From positions 864,001-928,000 of the forward strand of contig CAWCAG010000007.1 of NCBI GenBank assembly GCA_963793425.1: a stretch of DNA of 64,000 bases, read 5' to 3'. Below the pieces are notes generated by a model. The model saw only the letters and a program-made list of their open reading frames with translations, ran no database searches and was not told the DNA's origin. Shown here piece by piece: positions 2,375-40,242 of the stretch; within the stretch, counting starts at the first letter, position 1; the number at the start of each line of letters is the position of its first letter. The DNA comes from an uncultured cyanobacterium (GTDB taxonomy: Bacteria > Cyanobacteriota > Cyanobacteriia > Cyanobacteriales > CAWCAG01). Position numbers and translations under genes: made by a program.

Positions 2375-3667
2375 ATGAGTATTGTCGTTGTTGGTTTAAG
2401 CCATAAAACTGCCCCGGTAGAAGTTCGTGAAAAACTGAGTATTCCCGAAGCGAAAATTGAAGGGGCGATCGCCGATTTATTAAATTATCCCAATATTGAA
2501 GAAGTTGCGATTATTAGTACTTGCAATCGCTTAGAAATTTATGTGATTGCTAAAGAAACAGAACAAGGAGTACAAGAAGTTAATCTCTTTCTTTCTGAAG
2601 TTGCCCAACTCCCTTTAAGACAGTTACGACGACATTTGTTTACCCTCCTTCACCATGATGCGGTTATGCACTTAATGCGAGTTGCAGCAGGGTTAGAAAG
2701 TTTGGTATTGGGGGAAGGGCAAATTTTAGCCCAAGTTAAAACAGCCCATAAACAAGGGCAAAAATATCAGGGTTTAGGAAGATTATTAGATAAATTATTT
2801 AAACAAGCTATTAGTGCCGGGAAGCGGGTACGCAGCGAAACAAATATTGGTACGGGGGCTGTATCTATTAGTTCTGCGGCGGTAGAATTAGCTTTAATTA
2901 AGCTTCAGAGTTTTTCTAACTGTAGGGTAGCTATTATTGGGGCAGGAAAGATGTCCCGGTTGTTGGTTAAACATCTCCTTGCTAAAGGTGCAACGGAAAT
3001 TTGCATCGCTAACCGTTCTCAAAAACGGGCCCAGGAATTAGCCAATAAATTCCCTGAAGCGACTTTGCAGATTTGTGGTTTACCGGAAATGATGGGGGCG
3101 ATCGCCACAGCCGATCTTGTCTTTACCAGTACTGCTGCTACGGAGCCAATTCTGAATCGAGCTAAATTAGAACCAGTGATTGAAGCAACTCGTTCTTTGA
3201 TGCTATGTGATATTTCTGTACCTTTAAATGTCCATGGCGATGTTAAAGAACTTACCCACATTCAATCTTACAACGTAGATGACCTCAAAGCTGTAGTAGC
3301 CCAAAATAAAGAAAGCCGCCGCCAAATGGCATTAGAAGCGGAGGTATTATTAGAGGAAGAAGTCGGAAATTATGAATTATGGTTGCGTTCTTTAGAAACC
3401 GTTCCTACCATTAGTTCTTTACGGCGCAAAGTAGAAACTATTCGTACCCAAGAATTAGAAAAAGCTCTTTCTCGCCTTGGTACAGAGTTTGGGGACAAAC
3501 ATCAGGATGTTATTGAAGCTTTAACCAGAGGCATTGTCAACAAAATACTCCATGAACCAATGGTACAACTAAGAGCGCAACAGGATATAGAAGCCCGCCG
3601 TGTTGCCCTACAATCGTTGCAATTGTTGTTTGATTTGGATACAGAAAAGCAGTTTAGTCAAAGTTAA
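2375..3667 (+). CDS. hemA: glutamyl-tRNA reductase
   Basis: [39 protein letters not shown] and IIGAGKM motifs. Confidence 0.97.
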
Positions 3668-3678
3668 TCCTCTGTTTT

Positions 3679-3738
3679 CCTCAATCTCTTTACTAATGCC
3701 TCTCAATTCCTACTTTTTCAAGGAGATTGAGGGGTTTT
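3679..3738 (+). terminator. inverted repeat after hemA, possible terminator
   Basis: cctcaatctc ... gagattgagg followed by ggtttt; the loop is long, so function is uncertain. Confidence 0.35.
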
Positions 3739-3838
3739 CACTAGTCTTTTCTCATTCCATATCTAAAGAAATTTGTCAATCAGTAACTAGAAGAAAATAT
3801 TCAGGTATTATTGGTAGTAATCAGCTTGACTACTGAGT

Positions 3839-6800
3839 ATGAAAGCCCATACTAATCGTCCGAAAAAGTCCTCTTCTGCTCCTGTCCAAAAGAAATCACA
3901 GCCCCCTGTTGCTACTCCCCCGGTAGTAACAGAAAGGACGACTGAACAGATACAACAGCTTAAAAATATCCCCCCAGAGCCGCCTCCCATAACCCTAGAC
4001 GACTCTTTCGTTCAAACAGGTGGCCATAAGGTAGAAACCATAGTAGAAGAAGAAGAGCGCTTACAAAGAGATTCTACTTTATCAGCAGAAGATAGAGCAG
4101 CATTTACCAATAGAGTACGGAGTTCAATATTAGTAGGGCAGGGAGAAAGTATGGGAATGGAGAGTTCCTATGCCCTTAACCCTGGGCAGAAACCCTTAAT
4201 TCAAGCCCAAGCCATCAACCTTGACACTGTAGCGGGAACAGAAGAACGTAGACAAAACAGTCCTTTTGGGCAACAAATTCATAATTCCCTAATTGCCAGT
4301 CATCAACAGCAGATGAAGCAAGAGTGGCAAACTGCCCCTAACTCCTTTGAGCAACCTTTAGGGCAGAATCTTCAACGGCAACAGGATAGTACGGAAAGCC
4401 AGGAGCAGCCAGCAGAAGCAAAAGAAGAACTTCAGCCAAAATCAATAGTTCAGGAGCCTCGTAAGGAAAACAAATCATCGGCACAGGGAAATAAGATTGC
4501 TATTGAAACTCCTGAACAAGAGATTAAACCCAAAGCAATTAATCAATTAGAAAGCCAGCCTCAAAAAGCACCAAATTCAGAATCAATTGGAGTCCAAGAA
4601 CAAACAAAATCTCAAGGAGAAGCCCGCAATCAAGCAGAAAAACCAGAGAGTGCAGCAACCTCTGATGCAGGCTTTGTGCAACAAGGTGCTTCTGGAGGAA
4701 CTTCTCCTACTTCTGCGGGGGAAGATGCTGGTTTTCAAGGCTTGGTGGGTGATGTCAAAGGGGTAGCAGCCCAAGAAAAACAGCATGAACCAGCGACAGC
4801 AGAAGCCAAAGAAGCTCAAGGTGCTGCTCAATCCCCTAACAATGAAGTAGAAAGTAAAGCTCAAGACTCCCAAGTTGAGCAAATGGAACAGCAGCAGCCA
4901 GGGACTTTCAGTGCAAACGCTTTCAAAGCTGCCCTCTTGGCGAAAATTGATGCTATCATTCCTGATAACGAACAAGATGCAGAAAACTTTGGTCAAAGTA
5001 ACGAATTGGATTCTGTGCGGCAAGATGTTTCTTCTCAGGTGAGTGAAGAAGAAGAAAATGCTGCTGGGCCGATTAAAGAAACCACCGCAGCCCCACCAGA
5101 TACAAGCGGCATTGAACCAAAAACTTCCCAACCTTTACAATCTCCCCCAGCAGGTACACAACCTCAAGGTGTTGATGCCACCAAAGCAGTACCGAAACCA
5201 AAGTCTGAAGCAGAAGTAGCTGCCCCTTTAAATGCCAACTCACAAGAAATAGACCAGGAGATGGCTAATGTTAATATCACCGATGAGCAGCTTGCCAAAT
5301 CCAACGAACCCCAGTTTACAGCAGCACTGGATGCGAAGAATGAACTCAAGACTAATACGCAAGAAGCCCCAGCAGCATATCGCCAGCAAGAGCAGGAAAC
5401 CCTAAATCAGTCCCAAACAGAAGCCCAAACTACCAGCCAAACTCAGCTAGCAGGAATGCACGGAGAGCGTGGACAACTTCTAGGGCAGGTGTTGGGGCAG
5501 CAACAGGCAGTTAAAAGTCAAGATGAGCAGAAACGCTCTGAGGTGGCTACCCATATCAATGGTATTTATACAACCACAAAAACCGATGTTGAGAATATCC
5601 TTAGTGGTATAGATACAGAAGTGACGAGCAAGTTTGACACTGCTGCTGGTGCTGCCAAGGGTAAGTTTGAAAGCCATGTCAAAGAAAAAATGGCAGCTTG
5701 GAAGAAGGAACGTTATGGAGAATGGTACGATGTCACGGGTTGGGATGAGCGCATTAGTGATGCAGTAGTAGGTTTGCCACCGGAGGTAAATCAATTCTTC
5801 GTCGAAGGTAAGCAGCTTTATATCGACGAGATGGATGTGGCTTTGACGGATATTGCCAACTTTGTGGCTCAGAAGCTCAATGAAGCCAAGCAAAGGATTA
5901 GTGAAGGCAAAAACCAAATCAAAGAGTATGTTGCCACTTTGCCTCAATCTTTGCAACAGGTTGGACAACAAGCGGCACAGGATATTCAAAGTCAGTTTGA
6001 GCAGTTAGAACAAAGCGTTGATAGTAAGCAAGATGAGTTGATTGATTCTTTGGCTCAGCGCTACAGTGATAGTATCCAGCAAGTGAATAGCTGCATTCAA
6101 GAAATGCAAGAAGCTAATCGTGGTCTAAAAGATAAAGTTAAAGACGGTATTTTAGGTGTAGCTCAGACTATCGCACAACTCAAAGATATGTTGATGGGGG
6201 TGTTGGGCAAAGCAGCAGGAGCTATTGGCAAAATTATTCTTGATCCCATCAGTTTCCTGGGTAACTTGATCAGTGGTGTTAGCCAGGGCTTCAATAACTT
6301 TACGGGAAATATTACAACCCACTTGCAATCAGGTTTGATTGGTTGGCTTACAGGTGCATTAGGGCCAATGGGTATCACTTTACCTGAAGATATCTTTAGT
6401 TTACCGGGTATCTTCTCCCTTGCTACCCAAGTCCTCGGTTTAACCTGGAACTACATCCGTCGCAAAGCAGTGAAGATGTTCACTGAACCTATAGTAGCAG
6501 GAATGGAGAAGAGTGCAGAAGTGTTCCAAATGCTACGAGATGAAGGGCCAATGGGCTTGTGGGAGAATGTTAAGGAGCAGTTTGGTGACCTTAAAGAGAC
6601 GATCATTGAGCAAATTAAGGGTATGGTGATTACCCAGGTGATTACTGCTGGGGTGAAATGGGTTCTGAGTTTGTTGAATCCCGCTTCAGCTTTTGTGAAA
6701 GCAGCGATGGCAATTTATGACATCATTATGTTTTTCGTCAACCAAGGTTCTCAGGTGATGGCTTTGGTGCAGGCGGTGATTGATGGTGTGAGTGCGGTTG

Positions 6801-7606
6801 CTTCTGGGGCTGTGGGGGCGATGGCCAAGGGTATTGAGAATGCTTTGGTGAGGTCTTTGCCTGTGGTGATTGGTTTCTTGGCTTCTTTGTTAGGTATTGG
6901 TGGGTTGGTGAAGAAGGTTCAGAAGATTATTGGTAAGATTAGGGCGCGGATTGATAAGGCGATTGATAAGGTTTTGAGGAAGGCTAAGAAGGGGTTTAAG
7001 GGAAAGGGTAAGAATAATAAGGATAAAGATAAACCCAATAAAGACAAAGCAGTCGAAACTGGACTTAAGGGTTTACATCTTGAAGAGAAAAAATATCTTA
7101 AAGATAATAAAATTACTAAAGCTGATGCTAAAAAAGCAGCTAATATCACCAAAACTCAACACCCTATTTTCAAATCTATTACTGTTGTCGATGGAGGTAA
7201 AGATTGGGACTACGATTACACCATTCAAAGAACTGAGGATGGGGCAGAAAAAGCAGAAGGATCTAGAAAACATCCGAATCAAACCTGCGAAGATGAAGTA
7301 TTGGAGAGACTTCAAGCTGAAAAAGATGCGATTTGTGGCTCTATACCCAAGTTTCCTAATTGTAAATTGGCTTTGGATAAACTAAAAGCTGGGAAGAAAC
7401 TTAAAGGAAGTGTGAAGGGTGTAACAAGAAAAGATGTTGAAAACCGAATGAATAAAATACAAGAATGTATTGATAAAAGATGGGAAATACAAAACAAATG
7501 CTTTGGTGGAAAGCCAGATAAAGCGCATGAAGATGCTATTCAAGAGCTAGAGAATGGCTTAAGAAACTGCCAAGAATTATTAGATCATCCTGATTTGCCA
7601 ACTTGA
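3839..7606 (+). CDS. large polymorphic toxin (eCIS/PVC-type carrier) with C-terminal Ntox16-like predicted RNase domain
   Basis: Disordered Q/E/P-rich N-terminus, long helical or coiled-coil core, hydrophobic Gly-rich segment, K-rich linker, then a Cys-rich helical tip C..LQAEKDAIC...C..KR..IQNKCFGG..DKAH...NC that fits the Ntox16 pattern (DxxH plus Arg). Confidence 0.75.
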   Translation: MKAHTNRPKKSSSAPVQKKSQPPVATPPVVTERTTEQIQQLKNIPPEPPPITLDDSFVQTGGHKVETIVEEEERLQRDSTLSAEDRAAFTNRVRSSILVGQGESMGMESSYALNPGQKPLIQAQAINLDTVAGTEERRQNSPFGQQIHNSLIASHQQQMKQEWQTAPNSFEQPLGQNLQRQQDSTESQEQPAEAKEELQPKSIVQEPRKENKSSAQGNKIAIETPEQEIKPKAINQLESQPQKAPNSESIGVQEQTKSQGEARNQAEKPESAATSDAGFVQQGASGGTSPTSAGEDAGFQGLVGDVKGVAAQEKQHEPATAEAKEAQGAAQSPNNEVESKAQDSQVEQMEQQQPGTFSANAFKAALLAKIDAIIPDNEQDAENFGQSNELDSVRQDVSSQVSEEEENAAGPIKETTAAPPDTSGIEPKTSQPLQSPPAGTQPQGVDATKAVPKPKSEAEVAAPLNANSQEIDQEMANVNITDEQLAKSNEPQFTAALDAKNELKTNTQEAPAAYRQQEQETLNQSQTEAQTTSQTQLAGMHGERGQLLGQVLGQQQAVKSQDEQKRSEVATHINGIYTTTKTDVENILSGIDTEVTSKFDTAAGAAKGKFESHVKEKMAAWKKERYGEWYDVTGWDERISDAVVGLPPEVNQFFVEGKQLYIDEMDVALTDIANFVAQKLNEAKQRISEGKNQIKEYVATLPQSLQQVGQQAAQDIQSQFEQLEQSVDSKQDELIDSLAQRYSDSIQQVNSCIQEMQEANRGLKDKVKDGILGVAQTIAQLKDMLMGVLGKAAGAIGKIILDPISFLGNLISGVSQGFNNFTGNITTHLQSGLIGWLTGALGPMGITLPEDIFSLPGIFSLATQVLGLTWNYIRRKAVKMFTEPIVAGMEKSAEVFQMLRDEGPMGLWENVKEQFGDLKETIIEQIKGMVITQVITAGVKWVLSLLNPASAFVKAAMAIYDIIMFFVNQGSQVMALVQAVIDGVSAVASGAVGAMAKGIENALVRSLPVVIGFLASLLGIGGLVKKVQKIIGKIRARIDKAIDKVLRKAKKGFKGKGKNNKDKDKPNKDKAVETGLKGLHLEEKKYLKDNKITKADAKKAANITKTQHPIFKSITVVDGGKDWDYDYTIQRTEDGAEKAEGSRKHPNQTCEDEVLERLQAEKDAICGSIPKFPNCKLALDKLKAGKKLKGSVKGVTRKDVENRMNKIQECIDKRWEIQNKCFGGKPDKAHEDAIQELENGLRNCQELLDHPDLPT

Positions 7607-7619
7607 AACTCCTGTTAAA

Positions 7620-8231
7620 ATGAACAATAAAGATATTTTTGAAATAATTCGAGAACATAATGAAAGTTATCTTTTAAAGATGATTGAACAAGGTATCGAG
7701 ATAAATTCTCATATGCCCAATCCTCCTTTCTGGACTCCTTTACAAGAAGCTATAGATGAAATGGATGATGGAGGAAAAATAGAAATGGTGCAATTATTAA
7801 TTCAGGCTGGAGCTGATGTAAATGCTTGGAATCTAGACCACGATTCTAATCCTTTGCTCATGGCTATGTGGAGCGGCCATGAGGATATAGTAAGTTTACT
7901 ACTCAAGGCAGGAGCTAATCCTAATATTAAAGACAATGAAGGTAATTCTCCTCTTAGATTGAGTGTAGAGGAAGAAAACATAGAAATGGTGAAACTACTC
8001 CTTAGTCATGGAGCGAAAGAAACCATAGATGAAACTGGTGGATTCGGTGGCATGAATGCACTAGGAATTGCGGTAAATAAGCTTAATATTCCTATAATTA
8101 AAATACTTCTTGCTGAAGATGCTGATCCAGAAGCAACTGATAACGATTATCGAAAACCAATAGAAAGACTTCCCAAAAATGTAGATAGTAGTAAAAAAGA
8201 AGAAATTGAGAATTTACTAGCAAGTTATTGA
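7620..8231 (+). CDS. ankyrin-repeat protein, probable cognate immunity protein
   Basis: TPLQEA, NPLLMA..GH, GNSPLRLS and NALGIA ankyrin repeats; 13 bp downstream of the toxin gene. Confidence 0.85.
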   Translation: MNNKDIFEIIREHNESYLLKMIEQGIEINSHMPNPPFWTPLQEAIDEMDDGGKIEMVQLLIQAGADVNAWNLDHDSNPLLMAMWSGHEDIVSLLLKAGANPNIKDNEGNSPLRLSVEEENIEMVKLLLSHGAKETIDETGGFGGMNALGIAVNKLNIPIIKILLAEDADPEATDNDYRKPIERLPKNVDSSKKEEIENLLASY

Positions 8232-8253
8232 AGGCAGTTATAAGAAACATGAT

Positions 8254-8640
8254 GAAAACCCTGTGTTTTTAAACCAGGGATGAAAGCTGATTGCAGGATT
8301 TATCCTGCCAGGAAATGATATAATTGCTTAAACAGGAACGGTAATTAACCTGTCTAAAAACCCAACTGCCTAGAGGCAATCTGTACCTTGACAACTGAAG
8401 ATATGGGGTTCTATTCCATAGTTCTAGTTCCTACCCAGGAATAGGTAAAATCTTCATGGGATCTAGGCGACGCAGAATTTAAGTAAAATAAATTTTTGGA
8501 GTAATCCAACTACCGAGGGACACTCGGAAAGTTAACGATCGAGGAGAGAACCACCTCTGGATTAGATACCGCAAGGGGTCTAATCCAAGTGGACTCGTTG
8601 AACCGAGAATCTCCGTGGCTAAAGCTATGGAGAGTGTCAA
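8254..8640 (+). mobile_element. non-autonomous IS200/IS605-family derivative (no tnpA or tnpB) retaining a reRNA-like 3' region
   Basis: Left hairpin CCCTG-tgtttttaaac-CAGGG after TGAT; right end GAATCTCCGTGGCTAAAGCTATGGAGAGTGTCAA is the typical IS605 subterminal hairpin ending in TCAA; no ORF inside. Confidence 0.8.
8316..8324 (+). promoter_or_regulatory. extended -10 element inside the IS605 derivative
   Basis: TGaTATAAT is a perfect TGnTATAAT match. Confidence 0.55.
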
Positions 8641-8686
8641 GAAGACATTAATCTAACCCATGATGGCTAGATATTTCCCATAACCT

Positions 8687-9802
8687 ATGTCCCTCAAAAC
8701 TCAAAGCCAACAAATCAACAAAGCCTTAACCTTATACGAGTCTTCCCAAGGTTCCTACGATTTTCATATTTCCTCCCTCTTTATAACTAAACAAGAAGAG
8801 GAAATTATCGAATGTCGCCTCACTTTACAAATTAGCTTAGAAACTTATCAACATATCAACAGCAACGCCCTATTCAACCTCAAACCAGAAATACGCAATT
8901 CTGCTACTACAAAGTTTCAACCTTCCCCTGAAATCCACCTTGAAGCCTCCCTTAAACCTGATTTATTACAACAACTAGCAAAACAGGTTGCAAATATTGT
9001 AGAAGCTGTCAACTATCTTTTACTTCTAAGCAAAGAACAAACCTACAATCCCTTACTATGCACAGAAAGTTGGCTTGCACTTTCTGTTAAGCAGCAACAA
9101 GAGTCTGGGGAAATAGGCTACCGTACCTTCTGGTCTTATGTTAGCCCTCAAGCCCTTGCCCAAGCAAGTATTTCCGATTCTGGCGAAGAAATTTCTGAGG
9201 CTGTTGTTAACTTTTTTCAAGAGTGGACAGAATCCCACCTATCAGCAGCAACCCAGCAAACCACCTCTCAAATGTTGGATGGCATCACCAACTTTTTCAC
9301 TCAATTAGCGGATACTGCTGTGGATAAGTTTGCTGAAGTTGCCACAGCCAAGAGCAAGATTTTTGAGGAGATGGTAGATTTCTTCAGCCAAGAAGATTGG
9401 CAATTTACTTCAGTAAAAGGACAAACAATTCTACATTTAGCCTGCCAGGGTAAAAATGGGCAATGGGATTGCTTTGCAACTGCTAAAGAAGAACAACAAC
9501 AGTTCGTTTTTTATTCCCTCTGTCCTATTAAAGCACCAAAGAAGAAGCGTAGGCAATTAGGAGAATTTGTTTGTCGAGCCAATTATAGTGCAGTTATCGG
9601 CAACTTTGAATTAGATTTTAATGACGGAGAAATTCGCTACAAAACCAGCATTGATGTCGAAGGGGATTCCCTTAGTTTTTCCCTCATCAAACAAATGGTT
9701 TACGCTAATGTCACTATGATGGATGAATATTTGCCAGGGATTATAGCAGTGATTGAGGGTGAAGCCTCCCTAGAAGAAGCTATTGCTAAAATCGAAACCT
9801 AA
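8687..9802 (+). CDS. YbjN-domain protein (type III secretion chaperone-like fold) with N-terminal extension
   Basis: C-terminal FF..EDW.F...QGKNGQWDC...EFVCRANY...GNFELDFNDGEIRYKTSID is typical of cyanobacterial YbjN proteins. Confidence 0.8.
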   Translation: MSLKTQSQQINKALTLYESSQGSYDFHISSLFITKQEEEIIECRLTLQISLETYQHINSNALFNLKPEIRNSATTKFQPSPEIHLEASLKPDLLQQLAKQVANIVEAVNYLLLLSKEQTYNPLLCTESWLALSVKQQQESGEIGYRTFWSYVSPQALAQASISDSGEEISEAVVNFFQEWTESHLSAATQQTTSQMLDGITNFFTQLADTAVDKFAEVATAKSKIFEEMVDFFSQEDWQFTSVKGQTILHLACQGKNGQWDCFATAKEEQQQFVFYSLCPIKAPKKKRRQLGEFVCRANYSAVIGNFELDFNDGEIRYKTSIDVEGDSLSFSLIKQMVYANVTMMDEYLPGIIAVIEGEASLEEAIAKIET

Positions 9803-9819
9803 TACCATTATTCCTCCAG

Positions 9820-10818
9820 TCACCTCGTCACCTTGATTTTAGCTAAATAAATGAAGAAGGGGCCACCCACCAAGGCTGTCATAATACCGACAGGTATTTC
9901 TTGGGGTTGCAGGATTAATCTGGCAGCAATGTCTGATGCTAATAGTAAGATGGCTCCAAACAAGGCGCTATAGGGTAAAATCCACCGATAATCTACCCCC
10001 ACCACAAAGCGAACTATATGGGGTACAACTAAACCAATAAAACCGATTGCACCCGCAACGGCAACACCACTACCAGCTAATAAAATAACACAACCCAAAG
10101 CAACAATTTTTACTAAAGCAGTTTGCTGCCCTAATCCCTTGGCTACGTCTTCTCCTAAGCTAATAATCGTGATTTGCTGCCCTATAATTAAAGCTAAAAC
10201 CATCCCTATGGCTACGTAAGGGAGAATTTTCCAAATGAGGTTAGCATCCACCCCGGCTAAGGAACCCGCTAACCAAAAACGAATTTCTTCTAGGGTGCGT
10301 TGACTAATGATTAAGATAGCAGTGGTGAGGGAAGCTAGGAAAGCGCTAATGGCTGCACCAGCAATGGTAAGGTTGAGGGGAGTAAGACCACTACGCCCTA
10401 AAGAAGCAAAGCAGTAAACACTAATGGCTGTGATGCCAGCCCCTGCAAAGGCAAACCAAAGATAAAGACTTGGTGATGCTGCCCCGCCCCAAAAGATTGC
10501 TAGGACTACAGCTAGGGCTGCCCCAGCGTTGATGCCTAAGATACCAGGATCAGCTAAGGGATTGCGAGTTATACCTTGCATAATTGCCCCAGAAGTTGAG
10601 ATGGCTGCACCCACAATTATTGCAGTTAGGGATCTGGGTAAGCGAATGCTACGGATAATTAAATGTTCTGTGGAATCGTCAAAGGCAATGAGGGCTTGAT
10701 AAACACTTTTCCTAGGGATATCCGTTGCCCCAAAAGAAATACTCAGCCACAAACAGCTTAAGAGTATTATCAGTCCTATAATTAAGCCATAAACTCTTTT
10801 CTGCACCTGATTACCCAT
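9820..10818 (-). CDS. FecCD-family iron-siderophore ABC transporter permease
   Basis: IRLPR, MQGITRNPLADPGILGINAGA, LGEDVAKGLG and GFIGLVVPH motifs. Confidence 0.93.
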   Translation of the reverse strand: MGNQVQKRVYGLIIGLIILLSCLWLSISFGATDIPRKSVYQALIAFDDSTEHLIIRSIRLPRSLTAIIVGAAISTSGAIMQGITRNPLADPGILGINAGAALAVVLAIFWGGAASPSLYLWFAFAGAGITAISVYCFASLGRSGLTPLNLTIAGAAISAFLASLTTAILIISQRTLEEIRFWLAGSLAGVDANLIWKILPYVAIGMVLALIIGQQITIISLGEDVAKGLGQQTALVKIVALGCVILLAGSGVAVAGAIGFIGLVVPHIVRFVVGVDYRWILPYSALFGAILLLASDIAARLILQPQEIPVGIMTALVGGPFFIYLAKIKVTR

Positions 10819-11006
10819 TACTAGGGTTTTTTAACCAAAGAAAGGAAGAGATTAGGGGATGTACAATGAGTATACCCAAGGTAAAACACCAAAGAAGACT
10901 GATGGAACTGTAAAACCAGACAAAGAAGAAATAAAATAATCCGGCGATCTCACTAAACAACCCTACTCCTATTTACGGGTACATTCATAATTCCCTCATT
11001 CTCTAT

Positions 11007-12854
11007 TTAACTCAAACTAGGACGCTTTGCAGCAGTAGGAAACATGGCTTTAAAACCAGATTGACGTTGTTCGGCTGGTTCCTCGCTTAAGTTCCACAGG
11101 CTTTCATAAAAGAAGAAGGAAACTCCTGCAAAGTTTTGTTCTCGAACGGTTTGTACTTGTTGTTGAATATTTTTTAAAGGAATGGGAATGGGTTTAATGC
11201 CAGATAAAATACCAATGCCTGTGGGAATATGATTTTTCGCTACTTGCAAGCTTGGATGTGCTAATTCTTGCTTAAATCTCTCTAGATCCCGGCGGTAAAC
11301 TTGCACAATTAATTCTTCGATGTAGCCTTCTCTTTCCCAAGTATGCCAATCTTGTAAGTACTTTTCGTAGGCAAATTCATGAGGGTTAGGAGAAAGTCCG
11401 ACTAATACAGCCGGTTTGGTTTTTTTGACCGCTTGGAATACTTGTTTAAATGAGTTGGTGATTTTCCCTGCTCGCCAACGCATCCATTCTGGATCTTCGT
11501 AGTTATTGGGAGGAAGTTTGCCGTTATGTTCCTGTTGATATAACTTAATGCTGAAGGAGTCGTAACCAAAATCGGAAGGGATGCCGAAATGGTCATCAAA
11601 CTGAATGCCATCTATGTCATAGTTGCTGACAACCTCGACAACTAAATCAGTGATAAATTTTTGTACTTCCGGATGGAGAGGGTTAAGCCATACCCTTTCG
11701 TGAACATTCCCTTCTAACCAAATCTTGTCCCCATCGAGGCGATTAGTTAGCCAGTCAGGATGGCGTTTTGCTAATTCTGAGTCCGCAGGGGCCATGAAAC
11801 CAAACTCAAACCAAGGTATTACATCCATGGCAGGGCTAAGATCCCGCTTGATAGAGATAACTTCTTGCAGCATATCCCGATTTTGCAATCCTGGTTCGGG
11901 GTCAAGTTTTTGACCAATAACTCTTTGGGCTACTTGACTAGGATAGAGGGTGTAGCCCCAATTCCAAACTGTGGGGTAAAGGGTATTAAAATTTAACTGA
12001 TCTAAAGTGCTAATGGCTTGGGCGAGGCGACTACGAGAGAAGAGGACATCGCTATCAATGTTAGTTAACCACACTCCCCTTAACTCCATTGGTTGGCTGG
12101 GCAGAGTGCCAGCTACATATTGTTCCGGAATAACTTGTTGATAGCCCAAAGCCTGACACAAAAAGGCTGCTACTTCCCCCCGGCTAGCTAATTTTTGGGG
12201 TTGGAGTTGACGAACATTAGGATAGTTAACTACTAACTTTTTTTCAGTGGCTGCTGCGATCGCCTCTTTGGCATAGGGCGGAATTTGGTTAGCATCAGCA
12301 AAGGCATTGTTCAAGATGCCATCTACTTCTGCGGTGGAAGGAACTTGATTCAACCCAGCAACTAAAGCAAGCAAAACCTCTACTCTAGGAATATTTTTGT
12401 CCGGTTGAAATGTACCGTCAGGATAGCCAACCAGAAACCCGGTCTGTACTGCCCGACTGATGGGAGGAATTGCCCAATAATTAGGGCTAAGATCCCTAAA
12501 TTCCCTGGCGCTGCGGATGTTTTCTGCTTTGGAAAAAGCCTTACTAACAATGGCAGCAAACTCTGCCCTGGTGACAGGTAAGTTGGGTTTGAAACTACCA
12601 TCAGGATAGCCACTGATAATCTTTTGTTGGGCTAATTGTTGAACACAAGACTTACCCCAATAACCTTGGATGTCATTTAAAACGACTTGGGAACTGGCAG
12701 GAGGTAACTTGATAGTCGTTACGACAAGACTAAAGATGACCAGAAAAATTAGCCAAGCTTTACGCCCAAAGCGACGGCTAAAGAAAATTAATTTATCTAT
12801 ACAAAAAGTAAAAAGCTGAGAAATAGATTGTTTCATCTCTCCTTTATATTTCAT
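11007..12854 (-). CDS. SLH-domain family 10-like glycoside hydrolase (DUF187/GHL10)
   Basis: SLH repeats (ISGYPDGSFKPNLPVTRAEFA) followed by ELRGVWLTN, PWFEFG, WLNPLHPEV and DGIQFDDH. Confidence 0.9.
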   Translation of the reverse strand: MKYKGEMKQSISQLFTFCIDKLIFFSRRFGRKAWLIFLVIFSLVVTTIKLPPASSQVVLNDIQGYWGKSCVQQLAQQKIISGYPDGSFKPNLPVTRAEFAAIVSKAFSKAENIRSAREFRDLSPNYWAIPPISRAVQTGFLVGYPDGTFQPDKNIPRVEVLLALVAGLNQVPSTAEVDGILNNAFADANQIPPYAKEAIAAATEKKLVVNYPNVRQLQPQKLASRGEVAAFLCQALGYQQVIPEQYVAGTLPSQPMELRGVWLTNIDSDVLFSRSRLAQAISTLDQLNFNTLYPTVWNWGYTLYPSQVAQRVIGQKLDPEPGLQNRDMLQEVISIKRDLSPAMDVIPWFEFGFMAPADSELAKRHPDWLTNRLDGDKIWLEGNVHERVWLNPLHPEVQKFITDLVVEVVSNYDIDGIQFDDHFGIPSDFGYDSFSIKLYQQEHNGKLPPNNYEDPEWMRWRAGKITNSFKQVFQAVKKTKPAVLVGLSPNPHEFAYEKYLQDWHTWEREGYIEELIVQVYRRDLERFKQELAHPSLQVAKNHIPTGIGILSGIKPIPIPLKNIQQQVQTVREQNFAGVSFFFYESLWNLSEEPAEQRQSGFKAMFPTAAKRPSLS

Positions 12855-21804: not shown

Positions 21805-24800
21805 TTATTTTCTTCCCTTTAACCAATAGGTTTTCATATCTCCTTTTCCTTTAATATTCACTTTACCTCGATGGATAAATAAATAGTTTTCCTGCAACCG
21901 TTTGTAAGTAGCTTCGGTAACTTGAATTTCTCCTTCGGCTCCTTGGGATTCCATTCTGCTAGCAACATTAACTGTATCCCCCCACAAGTCGTAGATAAAT
22001 TTCTTAATACCAATTACTCCTGCGACTACTGGTCCTGTATTAATACCGATGCGGAGGCGGAATGGTTTACCATTTTCTTGTTTGAAACGACCAATTTCTT
22101 TTTGCATAGCTAGGGCTATATCAGCGATCGCTTCAACATGGTCTGCTCTAGGAACAGGCAACCCCCCTGCTACCATATAAGCATCACCAATAGTTTTGAT
22201 TTTTTCTAAACCAAGCTCTTCGGCGAGTTGATCAAAGCAAGAGAAAATTTGATTAAGAGTGCTAACTAATTCTAATGGGGCAACATCAGCAGAAATAGGG
22301 GTAAACTCAACAATATCTGCGAAAAGAACCGTTGCTTCATCAAATCTTTCTGCTAAAGAACCTTCGTAATGTTTGAGTTGCTCAGCAATGGTTTTGGGCA
22401 AAATATTCAGTAAGAGGCGTTCTGAACGAGCCTGTTCTTCTCGCAAAGCTTCTTCTGCCTCTTTACGCTTAGTAATATCTGTGGCTGTACCTTCATAATA
22501 AAGCAACTCGCCAACTTCATCTCGTACTACCCTAGTATTTTCAGAAATCCAGATAATACTGTCATCTTTACGATAAATTTGCGATTCAAAATTGGATACT
22601 AAGTCATCTCGCTCCAAAAGTCGCAGAAATTCCTGACGGCGTTCTCTATTCACATAGAGTTGTTCATTAATATTAGGTAAACTGCCAATTAAGTCCCTTA
22701 AGGACAGATAACCATACATATTAATCAAAGCTGGATTCGCACTAATATGACGACCATCAGGAGCAATTTGGAAAATCCCCTCAGCCGCATTTTCAAAGAT
22801 GCTACGATACTTTTCTTCCGCTTTTTCTAAGGCTTTTTCTGCATATTTGCGTTCGGTTATATCCCTTGCCACCCAAATGGCGCAATTATCAGGCATAGGA
22901 GAAACATTTGCTGCGTACCACATTTCTTGAACTGGAGCATATTCAACATTTTGAGTCACAGGCAAACTGTATTCTAAATAAACTGTCTGTCCGGTATTCA
23001 AAGCCCGTTGGATATGACTAACAAACAGTTTTGCTTGAGCAGAAGGCAAAACCTCATAAACCGTCTTACCAATTCTCTCGGTAGAAGGATTGTACAATAG
23101 TTCTGAATTAGTCGAAACAATTTTGAGATAGCGCCCTTGGGCATCAAACACCGCAATTACGTCTGTCATCGCCGCAAACAAAGCCCGCAATTCCGCTTCT
23201 ACTTTTTGGCGTTCGTTGACTTCAATGAGTAACTGACGGTTAGAGTCTCTTAAAGCAGCAGTACGTTCTTCAACTCTTGTTTCTAACTGTTCGTTTGCTC
23301 TTTGTAGAGCTTCTTGGGCTTCTTTGCGTTCAGCGATATCTTCTACTGTACCTTCGTAAAAAAGCAGATTACCTTCTTCATCACAAACAGTACGCGCATT
23401 TTCAGAAATCCAAGTTAAAGTACCGTCACGGCGATAAACTTGAGCTTCAAAACCGACTACCGAACCATACTGATTGAGTCTGCGGATAAATTCTGCTCTA
23501 GTTCCTGGTTCAACGTAGAGATTATCACCAATACTCCCCAGGTTGATAATTAAATCTTCTGGAGAATCATAACCGTAAATGCGTGCTAGGGCAGGATTAG
23601 CGCTAATAAAGTATCCTTCTGGAGTTGTTTGAAAAATTCCTTCTACGGCATTTTCAAAAATGTTACGATACTTAGCTTCAGCTTGACGCAGGCGCTCTTC
23701 TGCTTGTTGGCGTTCGGTGATATCAATGCCGATGGTAAAGGCTGCTTTGTTGTGGTCATATTTTTGAGCAACAATTAGATACTTGCGCTCAATACCATTA
23801 ACCTTAGCTGATACTTCCCGAAACGCATCTTGAATAGTATCATCAGCAAAGAATTGGCGGACAAAAGTATTAAATTCAGAGCTACTATTGAGAAAGCCAA
23901 TATTCTGACCCACAAAAGCTTCTCTTGGCAAGTTAAACGTTTCTGCTAAATGGCGGTTAACTTCTAAATAGTTAAGGTCTTTACTAATACGAGAAACAAT
24001 TCCTGGTACGGCTTCTAGCACCGCTTCCATTTGTCCTTGAGCATCAACAAGTTGCTCTTCTACTCGGTGACGTTTGGTAATGTCAATACCAACAATAAAA
24101 GTTGCTCTGTTGCGATTATATTTTCGGGCTACTAACAACAATCTTCTCTGCAACCCTTTAACCGTAGCCGATACTTCTCTATGTTCATCTTGAACTTCTT
24201 TTTTAGCGAAGAATTGACGGACAAATTCTTTAAACTCAGAACTACTGTTGAGAAAACCGATATCTTGTCCCACAAAGCTTTCTCTAGGTAGCTCAAACAT
24301 ATTGGCTAAATGGCTATTAACTTCTAGGTAGTGCAGGTCATCACTAATACGCGAAACAATGCCCGGCACTGCTTCTAATACCGTTTCCATTTGCTCTTTT
24401 GCTTCTAGGAGTTGCTTTTGCGCTTGGTGACGTTCAGTAATATCAATACCAACAATGAAAGTTGCTCGATTTTGATCGTATTTCTGAGCTACTATCAAGA
24501 ATTTTCGTTCTTCACCTTTAACAAGGGCAGATACCTCTCTATGTTCATCTTGAACTTCGTTTTTAGCGAAGAATTGGCGGACAAATTCTTTGAACTCAGA
24601 ACTACTATTAAGAAAGCCGATATCTTGCCCCACAAAGCTTTCTCTGGGTAGCTCGTATAGCTCTGCTAGATGGCTATTAACTTCTAAGTAGTGAAGGTCA
24701 TGGCTAATGCGAGAAACTCTTCCTGGTACAGCTTCTAAAATTGCCTGGAGTTGATCTCTGGCTGCCCTTAGCTCTTTTTCTGCTTGGGTTCGTTCCACAA

Positions 24801-26568
24801 CTTCCCCCACTAAGCGATCATTAGATTCTTTTAAAGCCGCAGTCCTCTCGGCAACTTTCTCTTCTAATTCTATTTTTGCTTGTTTGAGTATTTCTTCTTC
24901 CTGTTTCTGTTCACTAACATCTCTAGCAACCCAAAGTACAGAATCTGTGGAGATGGGAGAAAGGCTTCCGGCCAACCAAAATCTCTCTTCCCTGATGGTG
25001 AGGCAATATTCAAAATGGACGGTTTCTTGGCTTTCTAAGGCTTCTTGGATGTAACCTAAAAAAGTGTCAGCTTGGTTACGGTCAAATACTTCATCTAGAG
25101 TTTTACCCAACAACTGGCTACCGTCTTGATAGGAAAGATCGGCATGGTTGGGGGCAATTTTCAGATAGCGCCCCTGGTTGTTAATCACCAAAATTAGTTT
25201 TGTCATAGCCTCAAAGAGGCTCTGTAGTTCAGCTTCGGATTCTGGCAAGGGGGTGGAAATTCTCTGGGTCTGAGCCATTTCCCTTTGTAGTTGGGCCATA
25301 TTGCTCTGTAAGTCCGAAGATTTTTTTTGTAAGTCTTTTGCTCTGTTAATCCACAGAGAAACTTCTGAAAGTAAACCGGTAACAACTTCAGAATGATTAG
25401 GGCTATTTTCTCCTAAACTCAGCCAAGGTAGAGGTTTGGCTGGTCGAGGAGCCGTGTGGATGATGCTAAATTTTCCTGTGGGTAAGACTTGAGCAATGCG
25501 ATAGGGTTTCCAAACATGGTGGTTAGGTTCGAGTTGCACTAAGCCGCTAGGAGCCTTGAAAGTCTCTCCATATACTGCTACCCGTAACCTCTCTATGTCA
25601 AAGGATTGGGCTAATTCCACTGCTTGTTTCCACAGATAGATTTGGGTATAAGCTGTTTCGATTGCTTCGTTGATAACTCGCTGTTTGCCGTAGCGATTTT
25701 GAAAGTTACGAATAAATTCTCGGTTGCGTGGGGTATCGAGGCTTTGAAAATAGCTCCGAGTAGCATAGGTTCCTTGGGCATCTTTACCGATCTCTTGCAG
25801 TTCTACTTCGCTTAAACGAAGAGCCATGACGATGGTATCAGGGGAAAAACCTAACTCTTGATACTGTTTATAAAAAAGGAGGTTACTAGGTTCATTGAGA
25901 GTATTAATAATCACATCGGGTTGGATTTGTTTGATATTACCCAGAATAGGTCTAAACTCTTCAATGTCCGGAGGCATATAGACTTCACCAACAACTATTC
26001 CTGCTTGTTCAAGCTGTTGTTTAATCAGTTTGTGGACTGCATGGGAGAAAAGATCATCACTACCAACTAAGTAGAACTTTTCGTTACCGTTGGTCAATAA
26101 CCAGTTAACCGCAGGTTCTGCTTGTTGGTTAGGACAAGAGCCTGTGTAAAAGATATTCTTGGCAGATTCCATGCCTTCATATTGAGCCGAATACCAAAGT
26201 TGGGCATTTAGTTCTTCAAATATTGGTAAGACAGCTTGGCGAATTTGGGAACTATAACAACCAAAGATGTTTTGGATGCTACGCTTTTGAATTAGTTCTC
26301 TTGCTAAGCGTTCAAATTCTTTGGGATCAGAAGCTCCATCAGCAACAACTGGCTCAATTATTCTACCCAATACCCCACCTGTGGCATTGATCTCTTCTAT
26401 GGCCATCAGTTCTGCCTCTACAAGAGAGGTTTCTCTGAAAGCTAAAGTGCCGCTTAGGGAGTGCAAAATACCTACTTGTACGGTAGCACCCTCTTTTTGC
26501 TCTGGGGATTTGAGCGTATTAATGCTTGACATCTCTTCTTGGAGCATCTCACTTGTACACCGATACAC
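21805..26568 (-). CDS. class III adenylate cyclase with N-terminal UrtA/AmiC-like substrate-binding domain and multiple PAS domains
   Basis: N-terminal VGILHSLSGTLA..E..AIEEINATGGVLGR..DGASDP and QYEGME (UrtA-like); about 7 PAS repeats; cyclase motifs VLFADIV, EKIKTIGDAYM and YDLWGDTVNVASRMES with ATP-specifying K/D. Confidence 0.9.
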   Translation of the reverse strand: MYRCTSEMLQEEMSSINTLKSPEQKEGATVQVGILHSLSGTLAFRETSLVEAELMAIEEINATGGVLGRIIEPVVADGASDPKEFERLARELIQKRSIQNIFGCYSSQIRQAVLPIFEELNAQLWYSAQYEGMESAKNIFYTGSCPNQQAEPAVNWLLTNGNEKFYLVGSDDLFSHAVHKLIKQQLEQAGIVVGEVYMPPDIEEFRPILGNIKQIQPDVIINTLNEPSNLLFYKQYQELGFSPDTIVMALRLSEVELQEIGKDAQGTYATRSYFQSLDTPRNREFIRNFQNRYGKQRVINEAIETAYTQIYLWKQAVELAQSFDIERLRVAVYGETFKAPSGLVQLEPNHHVWKPYRIAQVLPTGKFSIIHTAPRPAKPLPWLSLGENSPNHSEVVTGLLSEVSLWINRAKDLQKKSSDLQSNMAQLQREMAQTQRISTPLPESEAELQSLFEAMTKLILVINNQGRYLKIAPNHADLSYQDGSQLLGKTLDEVFDRNQADTFLGYIQEALESQETVHFEYCLTIREERFWLAGSLSPISTDSVLWVARDVSEQKQEEEILKQAKIELEEKVAERTAALKESNDRLVGEVVERTQAEKELRAARDQLQAILEAVPGRVSRISHDLHYLEVNSHLAELYELPRESFVGQDIGFLNSSSEFKEFVRQFFAKNEVQDEHREVSALVKGEERKFLIVAQKYDQNRATFIVGIDITERHQAQKQLLEAKEQMETVLEAVPGIVSRISDDLHYLEVNSHLANMFELPRESFVGQDIGFLNSSSEFKEFVRQFFAKKEVQDEHREVSATVKGLQRRLLLVARKYNRNRATFIVGIDITKRHRVEEQLVDAQGQMEAVLEAVPGIVSRISKDLNYLEVNRHLAETFNLPREAFVGQNIGFLNSSSEFNTFVRQFFADDTIQDAFREVSAKVNGIERKYLIVAQKYDHNKAAFTIGIDITERQQAEERLRQAEAKYRNIFENAVEGIFQTTPEGYFISANPALARIYGYDSPEDLIINLGSIGDNLYVEPGTRAEFIRRLNQYGSVVGFEAQVYRRDGTLTWISENARTVCDEEGNLLFYEGTVEDIAERKEAQEALQRANEQLETRVEERTAALRDSNRQLLIEVNERQKVEAELRALFAAMTDVIAVFDAQGRYLKIVSTNSELLYNPSTERIGKTVYEVLPSAQAKLFVSHIQRALNTGQTVYLEYSLPVTQNVEYAPVQEMWYAANVSPMPDNCAIWVARDITERKYAEKALEKAEEKYRSIFENAAEGIFQIAPDGRHISANPALINMYGYLSLRDLIGSLPNINEQLYVNRERRQEFLRLLERDDLVSNFESQIYRKDDSIIWISENTRVVRDEVGELLYYEGTATDITKRKEAEEALREEQARSERLLLNILPKTIAEQLKHYEGSLAERFDEATVLFADIVEFTPISADVAPLELVSTLNQIFSCFDQLAEELGLEKIKTIGDAYMVAGGLPVPRADHVEAIADIALAMQKEIGRFKQENGKPFRLRIGINTGPVVAGVIGIKKFIYDLWGDTVNVASRMESQGAEGEIQVTEATYKRLQENYLFIHRGKVNIKGKGDMKTYWLKGRK
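23701..24780 (-). repeat. three tandem 360-bp (120-aa) intragenic PAS-domain duplications
   Basis: Near-identical text at 23881, 24241 and 24601 (exact 360-bp period); protein LEAVPG.VSRIS.DL.YLEVN.HLA...GQDIGFLNSSSEF occurs three times. Confidence 0.92.
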
Positions 26569-26991
26569 TCTTGCCTACGAACTCTAATCTAGAATTTCGG
26601 GATTCTTTGAGTCCCATAAATATTTGAAACTGAGATGCTACTGTTGATGCCTGATGATAATAAATGTAAACTGACAGTTTCTTGAACTCAATAAGAAGCA
26701 CAAATATGTGGCAATGATAGCCTTAATTGATTAAAATTGCCCAGATTGGTAAAGTAGTTGAAGGCTGAATCAACCATTCTATCGGGATTTAACACTTAAC
26801 ATTTATTTATATCAATATGTCATGAAAATTGAGATTTTAGGAGTAAGCAACTAAAAATAATGCTGTTTCTCTTGGGGTTTCAGGTACGATAGGGAAGGTT
26901 TGAGTATGATTTTCCCTTTTGGCAGATGTTTTTTCAGTATAACTATCAGTATCTATAAAAAAAAGTACTTCACCTCATCCCTAAGCTATAG

Positions 26992-39231: not shown

Positions 39232-39809
39232 GGGTGGTGAAAATTAAAATGCAATTGAGAACTTGCATTGTACTAGCAGAGACTATCAGCTTGTTGCTCT
39301 TTACTCTAGCATTATCAGGTTGCCAGATGAGTCAAACAAGTACCTCAACTTCAACCACACCAGTAAGCAATATGACTGAATTACCAACTATTTTGAATGG
39401 CACTGACATTGATAACAATTTTCTTACAATCTCTGAGGCAATAGACAGAGGAATATATGAAGAGGATGAATTAAAGAAAATCCTACAGGCAAGAACCGAA
39501 GGTAAACAAGTGCGTATAATTGGGCAATATACTCAGGTAGATGTGAGAAAACGACCCAAGCCACCACCTCAATATCGTGGTAATGTAGCTGTGGTGTTAG
39601 AAGATAGACGCAAAGTCTATCTTTATCCTATGTGGCATCCTGAAGCGAAAAGACCATCTGAGGAAATTGCCCGATATGAAAATCAGCAAGTTATTATAGT
39701 CGGTAAAATAGTTCCGCGAGCGCCTGAATCTCCTGAGGCTACTGCAATGATAATCTCACCCTGTTTGCTAACCATTGATTCGATTGAGTTAGCAGACGAT
39801 GAAAATTAA
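39228..39809 (+). CDS. lipoprotein, candidate immunity protein
   Basis: LALSGC lipobox; ATGA overlap with the effector stop codon. Confidence 0.7.
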   Translation: MRVVKIKMQLRTCIVLAETISLLLFTLALSGCQMSQTSTSTSTTPVSNMTELPTILNGTDIDNNFLTISEAIDRGIYEEDELKKILQARTEGKQVRIIGQYTQVDVRKRPKPPPQYRGNVAVVLEDRRKVYLYPMWHPEAKRPSEEIARYENQQVIIVGKIVPRAPESPEATAMIISPCLLTIDSIELADDEN

Positions 39810-40218: not shown

Positions 40219-40242
40219 AAGACAATCTGTGATCATTGTGTA

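Follow-up and report, generated by a model that had tools for sequence, protein, structure and literature searches.

A carrier-toxin, an ankyrin-repeat protein and a YbjN-like protein as a probable cargo cassette of a cyanobacterial contractile injection system

The DUF4157 toxins of extracellular contractile injection systems (eCIS) consist of a DUF4157 N-terminus, a long linker and a toxin domain (PMC8213781, in part), and a 'PVC-metallopeptidase' toxin architecture was described by Zhang et al. in 2012 (PMC3482391, in part). Here and below, 'in part' marks a source represented by a portion of its text. The injection-system genes of Anabaena PCC 7120 form a contiguous cluster, and the particles co-purify with two DUF4157 proteins (PMC8894136, in part). 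Tme of Streptomyces davawensis contains DUF4157, ~70% disorder, a coiled coil, transmembrane helices and a C-terminal endonuclease, and its gene adjoins baseplate genes; the protein co-purifies with spike and tube-initiator proteins and has been argued to derive from a tape measure (PMC11126660, in part). A small DUF4157 protein from a separate gene binds the coiled coil of a tape-measure-like effector that itself lacks DUF4157 (10.1101/2025.11.06.686954, in part). The disordered N-terminal domain of AlgoCIS cargo is required for loading and DUF4157 is dispensable, and N-terminal similarity is common to the cargos of one system (10.64898/2026.05.27.728243, in part). We analyzed a 64,000-nucleotide stretch of the genome of an uncultured cyanobacterium (contig CAWCAG010000007.1, here C7, positions 864001-928000; hereafter, the window), in which three adjacent genes encode a carrier-toxin (P0001), an ankyrin-repeat protein (P0002) and a YbjN-like protein (P0003).

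We conclude that these genes probably constitute a toxin/immunity/helper cassette of a contractile injection system, either an eCIS or a thylakoid-anchored relative. Our functional statements are drawn from homology, gene order, and structural models. An earlier note, based on the letters of the DNA, had proposed a cassette of this kind, and its reading is largely right. In the proposed mechanism, P0001 would be cargo of the tape-measure-like, long-carrier type. Its basic leader and long disordered region would direct it into the tube, and its all-helical core, with hydrophobic helices, may help it to cross the target membrane. The swappable C-terminal Ntox16-type nuclease tip is predicted from family membership to do the damage. 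P0002 would bind the tip over its DxxH helix and thereby protect the producer and its kin, as comparative evidence and a model suggest. P0003, judged by its fold and gene linkage, most likely binds the unfolded or hydrophobic carrier and passes it on to a baseplate or AAA+ loading step. This copy of P0001 appears to have lost the DUF4157 zincin-like domain of most relatives; if the function of that domain is needed, it could be supplied in trans by one of nine DUF4157 proteins encoded elsewhere in the genome. The features are as follows, in window coordinates.

3839-7606, plus strand: P0001, carrier-toxin of 1255 aa (open reading frame, ORF); long-carrier eCIS/DUF4157 polymorphic-toxin family by sequence, DUF4157 absent
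3839-3910, plus strand: N-terminal leader of P0001 (aa 1-24), basic, KKSS...PVQKK; candidate system-specific loading signal
3911-5515, plus strand: low-complexity region of P0001 (aa 25-559), rich in Q/E/K/P/S/T, probably disordered; no Pfam domain
5516-6988, plus strand: conserved all-helical core of P0001 (aa 560-1050), from an AlphaFold2 (AF2) model and alignment
6989-7228, plus strand: Lys-rich linker or junction of P0001 (aa 1051-1130), where family conservation ends and GC content drops
7229-7606, plus strand: Ntox16-like tip of P0001 (aa 1131-1255 and stop), predicted nuclease (RNase) domain, Pfam PF15523
7620-8231, plus strand: P0002, ankyrin-repeat protein of 203 aa (ORF); probable cognate immunity protein
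8232-8686, no strand: spacer of 455 bp; no convincing gene or signal
8687-9802, plus strand: P0003, two-domain YbjN-like protein of 371 aa; candidate carrier chaperone or adaptor

Compared with the DUF4157 (eCIS_core) toxins, P0001 has a homologous 'linker' of ~800 aa, with 46-72% identity among the relatives listed below. It also shares with them variable C-terminal toxin domains that include Ntox16, a putative immunity gene downstream, and an eCIS in the genome. Unlike these toxins, it lacks the defining DUF4157 HExxH, and its cassette lies away from the structural genes. P0001 further resembles Tme and the S. lividans proteins Sle1 and Sle2 as a large disordered and coiled-coil protein with hydrophobic helices and an exchangeable C-terminal nuclease. 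In some P0001 relatives, the gene stands beside spike and baseplate genes, as does that of Tme; this is not so in the present genome. Sle1, too, is without DUF4157 and relies on a DUF4157 partner from a separate gene (10.1101/2025.11.06.686954, in part). In contrast to Tme and Sle1, P0001 has no detectable sequence relation to tape measures and comes from a different phylum, and the P0001-type gene follows VgrG rather than preceding the baseplate genes. The available portions of the Tme and Sle1 papers do not mention a YbjN-like partner. Finally, the AlgoCIS cargos Cgo1 and Cgo2 have a disordered N-terminal domain followed by an ordered effector part, with N-terminal similarity within the system (PMC8894135 and 10.64898/2026.05.27.728243, in part). 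Unlike P0001, the Cgo proteins keep DUF4157, and the same portions of these sources describe neither a chaperone-like partner nor an immunity gene for them.

By sequence, P0001 is a member of a big, mostly cyanobacterial family of eCIS polymorphic toxins. A search with aa 560-1130, which scored only the 8000 candidates that shared the most words with the query, returned 1168 homologues at E≤1e-3, of which the best 120 were listed. These comprise one 915-aa fragment identical to P0001 and 119 relatives at the level of identity given above, nearly all cyanobacterial. Precomputed annotation places PF13699 (DUF4157, now 'eCIS core domain') near the N-terminus of 89 of the 120. This kind of toxin is thus already known, and P0001 adds a member without the marker domain. 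At the C-terminus, 20 of the 120 listed homologues carry Endonuclea_NS_2, and Ntox15, Tox-REase-7, PF18431, and Ntox16 occur in two each. Single cases carry PF14412, PF04607, PF14424, PF14410, PF14414 with PF12639, or PF18474. The names Endonuclea_NS_2, Ntox15, Tox-REase-7, and Ntox16 were confirmed by a re-scan; the other tail domains are given as accessions only.

The point at which homology to P0001 ends was evaluated using BLASTP. Alignments ended at P0001 aa 1041-1080 in 72 of the 120 proteins, at aa 1081-1145 in 33, and at aa 1146-1200 in 12. Two reached aa 1250, both of them Moorena proteins that also end in Ntox16, and one, the fragment identical to P0001, ended at aa 1021. Beyond the end of the alignment, the homologues carry a median of 309 more residues that are unrelated to P0001. 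A single-linkage grouping of tails was blurred by a semi-conserved stretch after the core. In G001, a comparison genome of the same genus, the orthologue has 1536 aa and matches P0001 at 79% identity over aa 1-1101 (88% for the first 330); past aa 1101 it carries an unrelated tail of 430 aa. The gene is followed by a 262-aa ORF without a Pfam domain and then a DUF6939 gene, with neither an ankyrin nor a YbjN gene. The tip proposed by the earlier note to be swappable does indeed differ among homologues. Within its own genome, P0001 has no paralogue at E≤1e-3.

The tail had been assigned to Ntox16, and a profile hidden Markov model (HMM) search bore this out. PF15523 matched aa 1180-1246 with E=1e-8 and 35.7 bits (cut-off 25), covering model positions 19-84 of 85. 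It was the sole significant Pfam domain in P0001, and NCBIfam gave no match for P0001 or P0003. In a whole-genome profile search, the tip scored 42 bits. The signature of Ntox16 is an R and a [DNE]xxH motif, and the catalogue entry lists no immunity protein (Zhang et al. 2012, PMC3482391, in part). The tip contains R1214 and D1227-x-x-H1230. Six of the seven cysteines of P0001 lie in the tip (1150, 1166, 1175, 1210, 1221, and 1244). In an alignment of nine tip sequences, the invariant positions were PNQTC, R1214, Q1218, C1221-F-G, P1226-D1227-x-x-H1230 (here D1227-K-A-H1230), and H1250; the six cysteines, conserved R and DKAH described earlier are therefore real. The tip is predicted to be a nuclease, specifically an RNase, that does the damage. 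A sequence search found no solved relative of the tip at E≤1. Ntox16 is rare, occurring at eight loci in 6 of 401 sampled cyanobacterial genomes. A second Ntox16 toxin of this genome (269 aa, canonical subtype) lies at C7:299-305 kb (L025:2124-8072), preceded by an AAA ATPase gene and a HEAT-repeat gene and followed by two DUF6714 genes.

P0002 matches Pfam Ank with E=7e-26, and NCBIfam returned only sub-threshold Dot/Icm ankyrin models, far below the cut-off. To place this gene, the eight Ntox16 loci can be divided into two groups by Pfam score. All five strong-scoring, canonical loci (L020/L025, L045, L046, L048, and L050) are followed by a DUF6714 gene. The three weaker-scoring loci (the window, L047, and L049) have genes for ankyrin proteins of 203-213 aa directly downstream. 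The ankyrin proteins of L047 and L049 are 43% identical to P0002 over 181 aa, and their tips are 39-40% identical. A metagenome scan with the tip alignment added six loci (L144-L149), and an ankyrin ORF lay directly downstream in all six. For the tip subtype of the window, an ankyrin gene is thus found downstream in 9/9 loci, with 35-41% identity among the ankyrin proteins over their full length. The carriers of these loci range from short DUF4157 proteins of 565 aa (L047) and 459 aa (L049) to the 1255-aa P0001. Because they differ so widely, the ankyrin gene tracks the tip and not the carrier.

The tip and P0002 were also co-folded. Three runs scored 0.89, 0.89, and 0.90, versus 0.00 for the best of three controls. 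A mark of 0.89 was reached by 116 of 157 solved complexes and by 2 of 215 mismatched pairs, a calibration that is rough because our own alignments were used. The runs had at least 97% of contacts in common, with a predicted local distance difference test score (pLDDT) of at least 92 for the partner. The modelled interface takes in tip residues 99-113, the helix that contains H1230. Since the tip has no solved relative by sequence, this result is unlikely to reflect memory of a like complex. Based on the pairing and the model, P0002 is the probable cognate immunity protein for the tip, as the earlier note had suggested. Similarly, DUF6714 is likely the immunity family of canonical Ntox16, because it lies downstream of all five canonical loci. 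Both assignments go beyond the literature searched.

It is very improbable, in our estimate, that P0002 is instead a co-delivered effector. Such a role has a precedent in EAT2, an ankyrin-repeat protein encoded after DUF4157 genes that inhibited E. coli (PMC8213781, in part). Ankyrin effectors are also common in other secretion systems, although the Dot/Icm matches of P0002 are those far below the cut-off. The strict pairing with one toxin subtype on different carriers, together with that of the sister subtype with DUF6714, argues against this role, as do the absence of a cargo-like leader from P0002 and the confident modelled interface over the DxxH helix.

P0003 contains PF10722 (YbjN) at aa 231-352 (E=6.7e-9, 36.5 bits, cut-off 22). 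It has 1108 homologues at E≤1e-3, for which the best name is 'YbjN domain-containing protein'. In an AF2 model built from 51 sequences (pLDDT 83.4), poorly defined linker helices lie between an N-terminal alpha/beta domain (aa 1-160) and a C-terminal domain (aa 224-370). Using Foldseek, the model matched AmyR and E. coli YbjN and, equally well, the type III chaperones SycH, SchA, VecA, ExsC, SicP, SycT, Spa15, SycE, SpcU, and CesT. The twelve rows at E≤1e-3 had a probability of 1.00 and template modelling scores (TM-scores) on the target of 0.49-0.74; entries 5frk, 6vu7, 4gf3, 4g6t, 9ux0, and 3kxy had E values of 1.7e-4 to 9.4e-4. The chaperone fold attributed to this gene by the earlier note is supported by these matches, and the gene is a conserved partner of such toxins, as set out next.

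The neighborhood of YbjN-like genes was scanned in one genome per species, keeping the best 79 of 543 loci. Sixteen of these had less than 6 kb of upstream sequence and were set aside (toxin in 5, none in 11). Of the remaining 63, 30 have both a DUF4157 ORF and a carrier-core homologue upstream on the same strand, 20 have a DUF4157 ORF alone, 7 a carrier core alone, and 6 neither. Thus, a toxin gene of the DUF4157/carrier kind precedes the YbjN-like gene in 57/63 loci. In the 61 loci where it could be delimited, the gap between the toxin and the start of the YbjN-like gene had a median of 959 bp, with 400-1500 bp in 39 and less than 150 bp in 3; in the window, 1080 bp separate the carrier stop from the P0003 start. 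On the far side, gp25 and Baseplate_J follow the YbjN-like gene on the same strand in 15 of the 65 loci with at least 3 kb of downstream sequence. The distance to gp25 is 61-2254 bp, and 61-62 bp in three loci. VgrG lies ahead of the toxin in 13 of the 55 loci with at least 8.5 kb of upstream sequence. The gene order in relatives is therefore VgrG - carrier - (immunity) - YbjN-like - gp25 - Baseplate_J. In the sample of 401 cyanobacterial genomes, the YbjN-like gene was found in 24 (E≤1e-20) and DUF4157 in 53. By an overlap counted by hand, DUF4157 was present in 19 of the 24 YbjN-like-positive genomes versus 34 of the 377 others.

The C-terminal domain of P0003 has the fold of class I type III chaperones (SycH, SicP, SycE, and CesT) and of YbjN/AmyR. 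As with those chaperones, the gene sits beside that of a protein that would be secreted and partly unfolded. Unlike them, P0003 has the extra N-terminal alpha/beta domain and helical linker, and there is no type III system. In the type VI secretion system, the Eag/DUF1795 and Tap/DUF4123 adaptors, small proteins whose genes adjoin those of effectors, cover hydrophobic helices and pass the effector to the spike. The role proposed for P0003 is alike; the folds and machinery are unrelated, so the comparison is an analogy only.

We tentatively propose that P0003 is a dedicated cargo chaperone or adaptor of cyanobacterial contractile injection systems. Such a protein would keep the disordered, hydrophobic carrier-toxins competent for loading and deliver them to the spike and baseplate or to an AAA+ loader. 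Gene order and fold make this role plausible, somewhat short of likely. A regulator of the cassette or of a stress response, or a second immunity factor, is the other kind of role to be considered, and we judge it rather unlikely. The best fold matches, AmyR and E. coli YbjN, are regulators by the titles of their PDB entries ('amylovoran repressor' and 'putative transcription regulator', respectively), the gene can be unlinked from the carrier, as in G001, and the 455-bp spacer separates it from the ankyrin gene. However, the type III chaperones match equally well, and Pfam detects no DNA-binding domain. The YbjN-like gene also stays with the carrier whatever the tip, with or without an immunity gene, and the short gap to the toxin in just 3/61 loci, taken with this, argues against a tip-specific immunity function. 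The placement of gp25 within 62 bp of the gene in three loci likewise speaks against these other roles.

The statistical association of YbjN with eCIS has already been recorded: pfam10722 is an eCIS 'cloud' domain with an odds ratio of 6.09 and 14 genes in eCIS operons of 2 phyla, and a Limnospira maxima YbjN gene adjoins afp15 and afp16 (PMC8213781, supplement). In the literature searched, which did not extend to bioRxiv supplements, we found no paper that joins YbjN with contractile injection and, among the papers listed, none that links YbjN to these toxins, nor any discussion of the association, the gene order or the chaperone fold. What the sequences add to that literature is an apparently consistent operon-level partnership between a two-domain YbjN/type III-chaperone-like protein and the carriers.

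Two further YbjN-like sequences were observed. At C7:1136.8-1138.8 kb (L044:8845-10825) lies a third YbjN-like copy that has in-frame stops and is interrupted by a DDE_3/HTH transposase gene (L044:9530-10591). A 37-aa fragment with an in-frame TGA (L034:1501-1611), from a genome of a different family (G030, contig C438), is 59% identical to P0003 aa 106-142 and lies just past the 3' end of hemA. A similar cassette may once have stood beside this neighbor gene and left the fragment as a relic, or the match may reflect chance.

The architecture of the carrier bears on what P0001 does in the particle. Up to aa 600, the fraction of polar residues (Q, E, K, P, S, T, N, and D) is 0.58-0.65 per 100-aa block, and homologue alignments mostly begin at aa 135-290. 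The core (aa 560-1050) is 44-67% identical to 24 of 26 aligned relatives; the other two have 25% and 35% identity. An AF2 model of the core, built from 27 sequences (pLDDT 71.3), consists entirely of helices: those of ~50-65 residues come first, and many short ones after them. After the long helices comes a hydrophobic, glycine-rich helical segment at aa 928-1027 (nucleotides 6620-6919), in which Kyte-Doolittle windows reach at least 1.5 at aa 928-946, 949-967, 973-994, and 1001-1027. The best Foldseek row for the core, Umb1 8w20 (E=0.02, TM 0.15), was rejected as not meaningful.

A reading compatible with the cassette, possible but on the unlikely side, is that P0001 is mainly structural: a tape-measure-like protein acting in tube length or baseplate nucleation rather than free cargo, with the toxin tips acquired secondarily and the YbjN-like protein an assembly chaperone of the baseplate. 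The core fits this reading with its ~60-residue and hydrophobic helices, and so does the position of the gene in relatives, where it is the largest ORF between VgrG and gp25; Tme, as introduced above, offers a parallel in both its argued origin and its co-purification. Against it, no tape-measure similarity in sequence or fold was found in PHROGs, with Foldseek, or in a PDB profile search, and the tape measure could be among other, unassigned ORFs (352 and 614 aa) that lie between tube genes on contig C5 of this genome. At least two carrier loci each come from Floridaenema, Coleofasciculus, and Anabaena UHCC 0204, and several carriers per genome fit cargo better than a single ruler.

For the cassette as preferred here, the missing DUF4157 raises the question of loading. 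As the earlier note had stated, P0001 lacks the DUF4157 HExxH core: PF13699 has no match at E≤0.1, and an HMM built from 16 DUF4157 segments scored at best -1.4 bits against aa 1-330. Only 171 bp separate the hemA stop from the P0001 start, leaving no room upstream for DUF4157. Among the relatives, all 17 full-length proteins without DUF4157 in the precomputed annotation also lacked it on re-scan. Three DUF4157 genes in tandem at C7:671-678 kb encode proteins whose first ~28 aa resemble the leader of ~24 residues. Of the 4327 genome ORFs of at least 100 aa, just P0001 and these three have P[VI]Q[KR]K among their N-terminal 40 residues; the motif was picked post hoc from the four proteins themselves, so it shows exclusivity and is no independent test. 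The different loading route suggested by the earlier note is not needed, because DUF4157 proteins encoded in this genome have the leader in common with P0001 and there are precedents in AlgoCIS, where DUF4157 is dispensable for loading, and in the DUF4157-less effector.

Nine DUF4157 proteins are encoded in the genome, including one in the window (37663-39231). The tandem genes at C7:671-678 kb (L002-L004) encode proteins of 276, 571, and 589 aa whose N-terminal ~100 residues are nearly identical and whose tails differ; the trio has the look of a gene array for small cargo or adaptor proteins. The DUF4157 gene of the window (522 aa; PF13699 E=3e-30) opens a run at 37663-41349 that continues with two small Pfam-less ORFs and a gene resembling polyprenyl synthetase. 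Behind its near-identical DUF4157 paralogue at C7:57.5-59 kb (L018:9501-11006) come a WG_beta_rep gene and a polyprenyl_synt gene.

We next consider the injection machine itself. Structural genes occur at no fewer than three loci on three contigs. At C7:39-48 kb are genes for a cap (Pvc16_N), a sheath, three gp19-type tubes, a GerE response regulator, and a second Pvc16_N protein; C5:326-334 kb encodes a tube, a CIS_tube protein, and VgrG, and C9:197-201 kb encodes gp25, Baseplate_J, and Tail_P2_I. AAA ATPases of 600-680 aa adjoin DUF4157 genes (C5:136 kb and C1:151 kb) and the second Ntox16 gene (C7:299 kb). An injection particle encoded elsewhere in the genome, as had been postulated, is therefore matched by sheath, tube, cap, VgrG, gp25, and Baseplate_J genes. 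The description of the cassette as stand-alone holds for this scrambled genome and not for the family, in whose members the cassette lies within the baseplate operon. It looks stand-alone here because the whole injection-system cluster of the genome is scattered. By sequence comparison, the cassette appears to be a fragment of a baseplate operon dispersed by rearrangement, with VgrG now on C5 and gp25 and Baseplate_J on C9. About 9 kb from the tube and sheath genes, at C7:28-31 kb (L017:96-3278), lies a 1060-aa NNH3-NACHT-pentapeptide-repeat gene.

It is improbable that the cassette is a polymorphic toxin independent of any injection machine, released by lysis or otherwise and entering through its own hydrophobic helices. 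This idea draws on the distance of the cassette from the structural genes, the lack of DUF4157, and the 50 of 65 relatives' loci without an adjacent gp25. Set against these are the eCIS-specific domain in 89 of the 120 closest relatives, the leader common to the DUF4157 proteins of this genome, and the recurrent embedding in baseplate operons; moreover, Pfam revealed no signal peptide or other secretion domain.

Several observations weigh against the cassette being part of an injection system as proposed. The cassette lies ~825 kb from the sheath genes, and with structural genes on three contigs a working particle is only predicted. P0001 lacks the family marker DUF4157. The core has no match in the PDB at E≤1e-3 (Foldseek); PHROGs returned merely two families of unknown function (E=0.0012 and 0.004), and the PDB profile search only apolipoprotein-like amphipathic helices, so that homology to tape measures was not detected. 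The toxicity of EAT2 to E. coli and the regulator titles of the YbjN and AmyR structures, both described above, count on the same side. Regarding the YbjN-like gene, the six loci with neither toxin type upstream are exceptions to the linkage, and 5 of the 24 YbjN-positive genomes lack DUF4157; four of these five have C-domain-only matches and one has pseudogenes. We attach no P-value to the linkage because related genomes are not independent. In G001, 130 kb separate the P0003 orthologue (79% identity), which follows an AAA_35/TIR/cyclase gene, from the carrier. Finally, carrier-core identity and YbjN-like identity are weakly correlated (Spearman 0.27; 21 of 2000 permutations as high).

The setting of the locus was also examined. 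The three same-strand ORFs follow glpX (1101-2144) and hemA (2375-3667), exactly where the earlier note had placed three co-oriented genes. Downstream of P0003, Pfam identifies a FecCD permease gene and an SLH/GHL10 gene on the opposite strand. Of the claim that the cassette was inserted after hemA, the position stands and a clean insertion does not. Synteny with G001 breaks off 4 bp past the hemA stop, and to the right the YbjN gene, fecCD, and the SLH gene are each on different G001 contigs. A clean insertion site was sought and is not definable, G001 being rearranged on both sides. In this comparison, the locus edge is a rearrangement breakpoint rather than a clean insertion. The 455-bp spacer contains nothing longer than ORFs of 20-53 aa and has no match in G001. 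Counts of promoter-like sites (14 vs 11.5±3.2 in shuffles) and terminator-like sites (8 vs 7.1±2.5 in shuffles) in 3500-10000 were uninformative.

The base composition changes within P0001. The genome has a GC content of 0.399. The DNA that encodes carrier aa 1-1050 (3839-6988) reaches 0.454, which ranks in the top 0.66% among genome windows of 3150 bp, and the tip with the ankyrin gene (6989-8231) has 0.351, which ranks in the lowest 5.8% among those of 1240 bp. The turn from a GC-rich carrier to AT-rich DNA near 7000 reported previously is thus real, and it coincides with the alignment end at query aa 1041-1080 seen in 72 of the 120 homologues. The HIP1 site GCGATCGC occurs 32 times in the 64-kb window versus 0.18 expected, a density that marks the DNA as cyanobacterial, and is absent from 3105-12256, a gap of 9151 bp. 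The lack of HIP1 sites over ~6 kb that had been noted is true; we give it no weight and reject it as a sign of foreign origin, because 33 gaps of at least this length occur across the genome, comprising 7.9% of all bases. One of three sediment-metagenome runs yielded DNA contigs that span the whole stretch and may be its source. In the other two, the contigs listed end at ~6531-7071 with none bridging, and the summed depth is low at 6765-7015; we draw no conclusion from these. Elsewhere in the window, two very large genes occupy 21805-31305 on the minus strand. The 1587-aa protein combines numerous PAS domains with a periplasmic-binding domain and an adenylate/guanylate cyclase domain, and the 1437-aa protein has weak UvrD_C, AAA_16, and STAND-NTPase matches only.

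It is still unclear how cargo enters contractile injection particles, which are now engineered as vehicles for delivering proteins. A secretion-chaperone fold marks the conserved and so far unstudied helper to which this locus and its ~540 relatives point; its gene accompanies one large family of cargo-toxins and in many genomes is embedded in the baseplate operon. The 2012 polymorphic-toxin catalogue gave no immunity protein for Ntox16 in its available portion, and the present survey assigns likely ones, the ankyrin and DUF6714 proteins. P0001 would be a naturally occurring case in which a family member lacking DUF4157 works or is at least maintained by selection. If P0003 is indeed a cargo chaperone, it would represent the first dedicated chaperone class for eCIS cargo, and this would explain the place of its gene between the toxin and gp25 in the ancestral operon.

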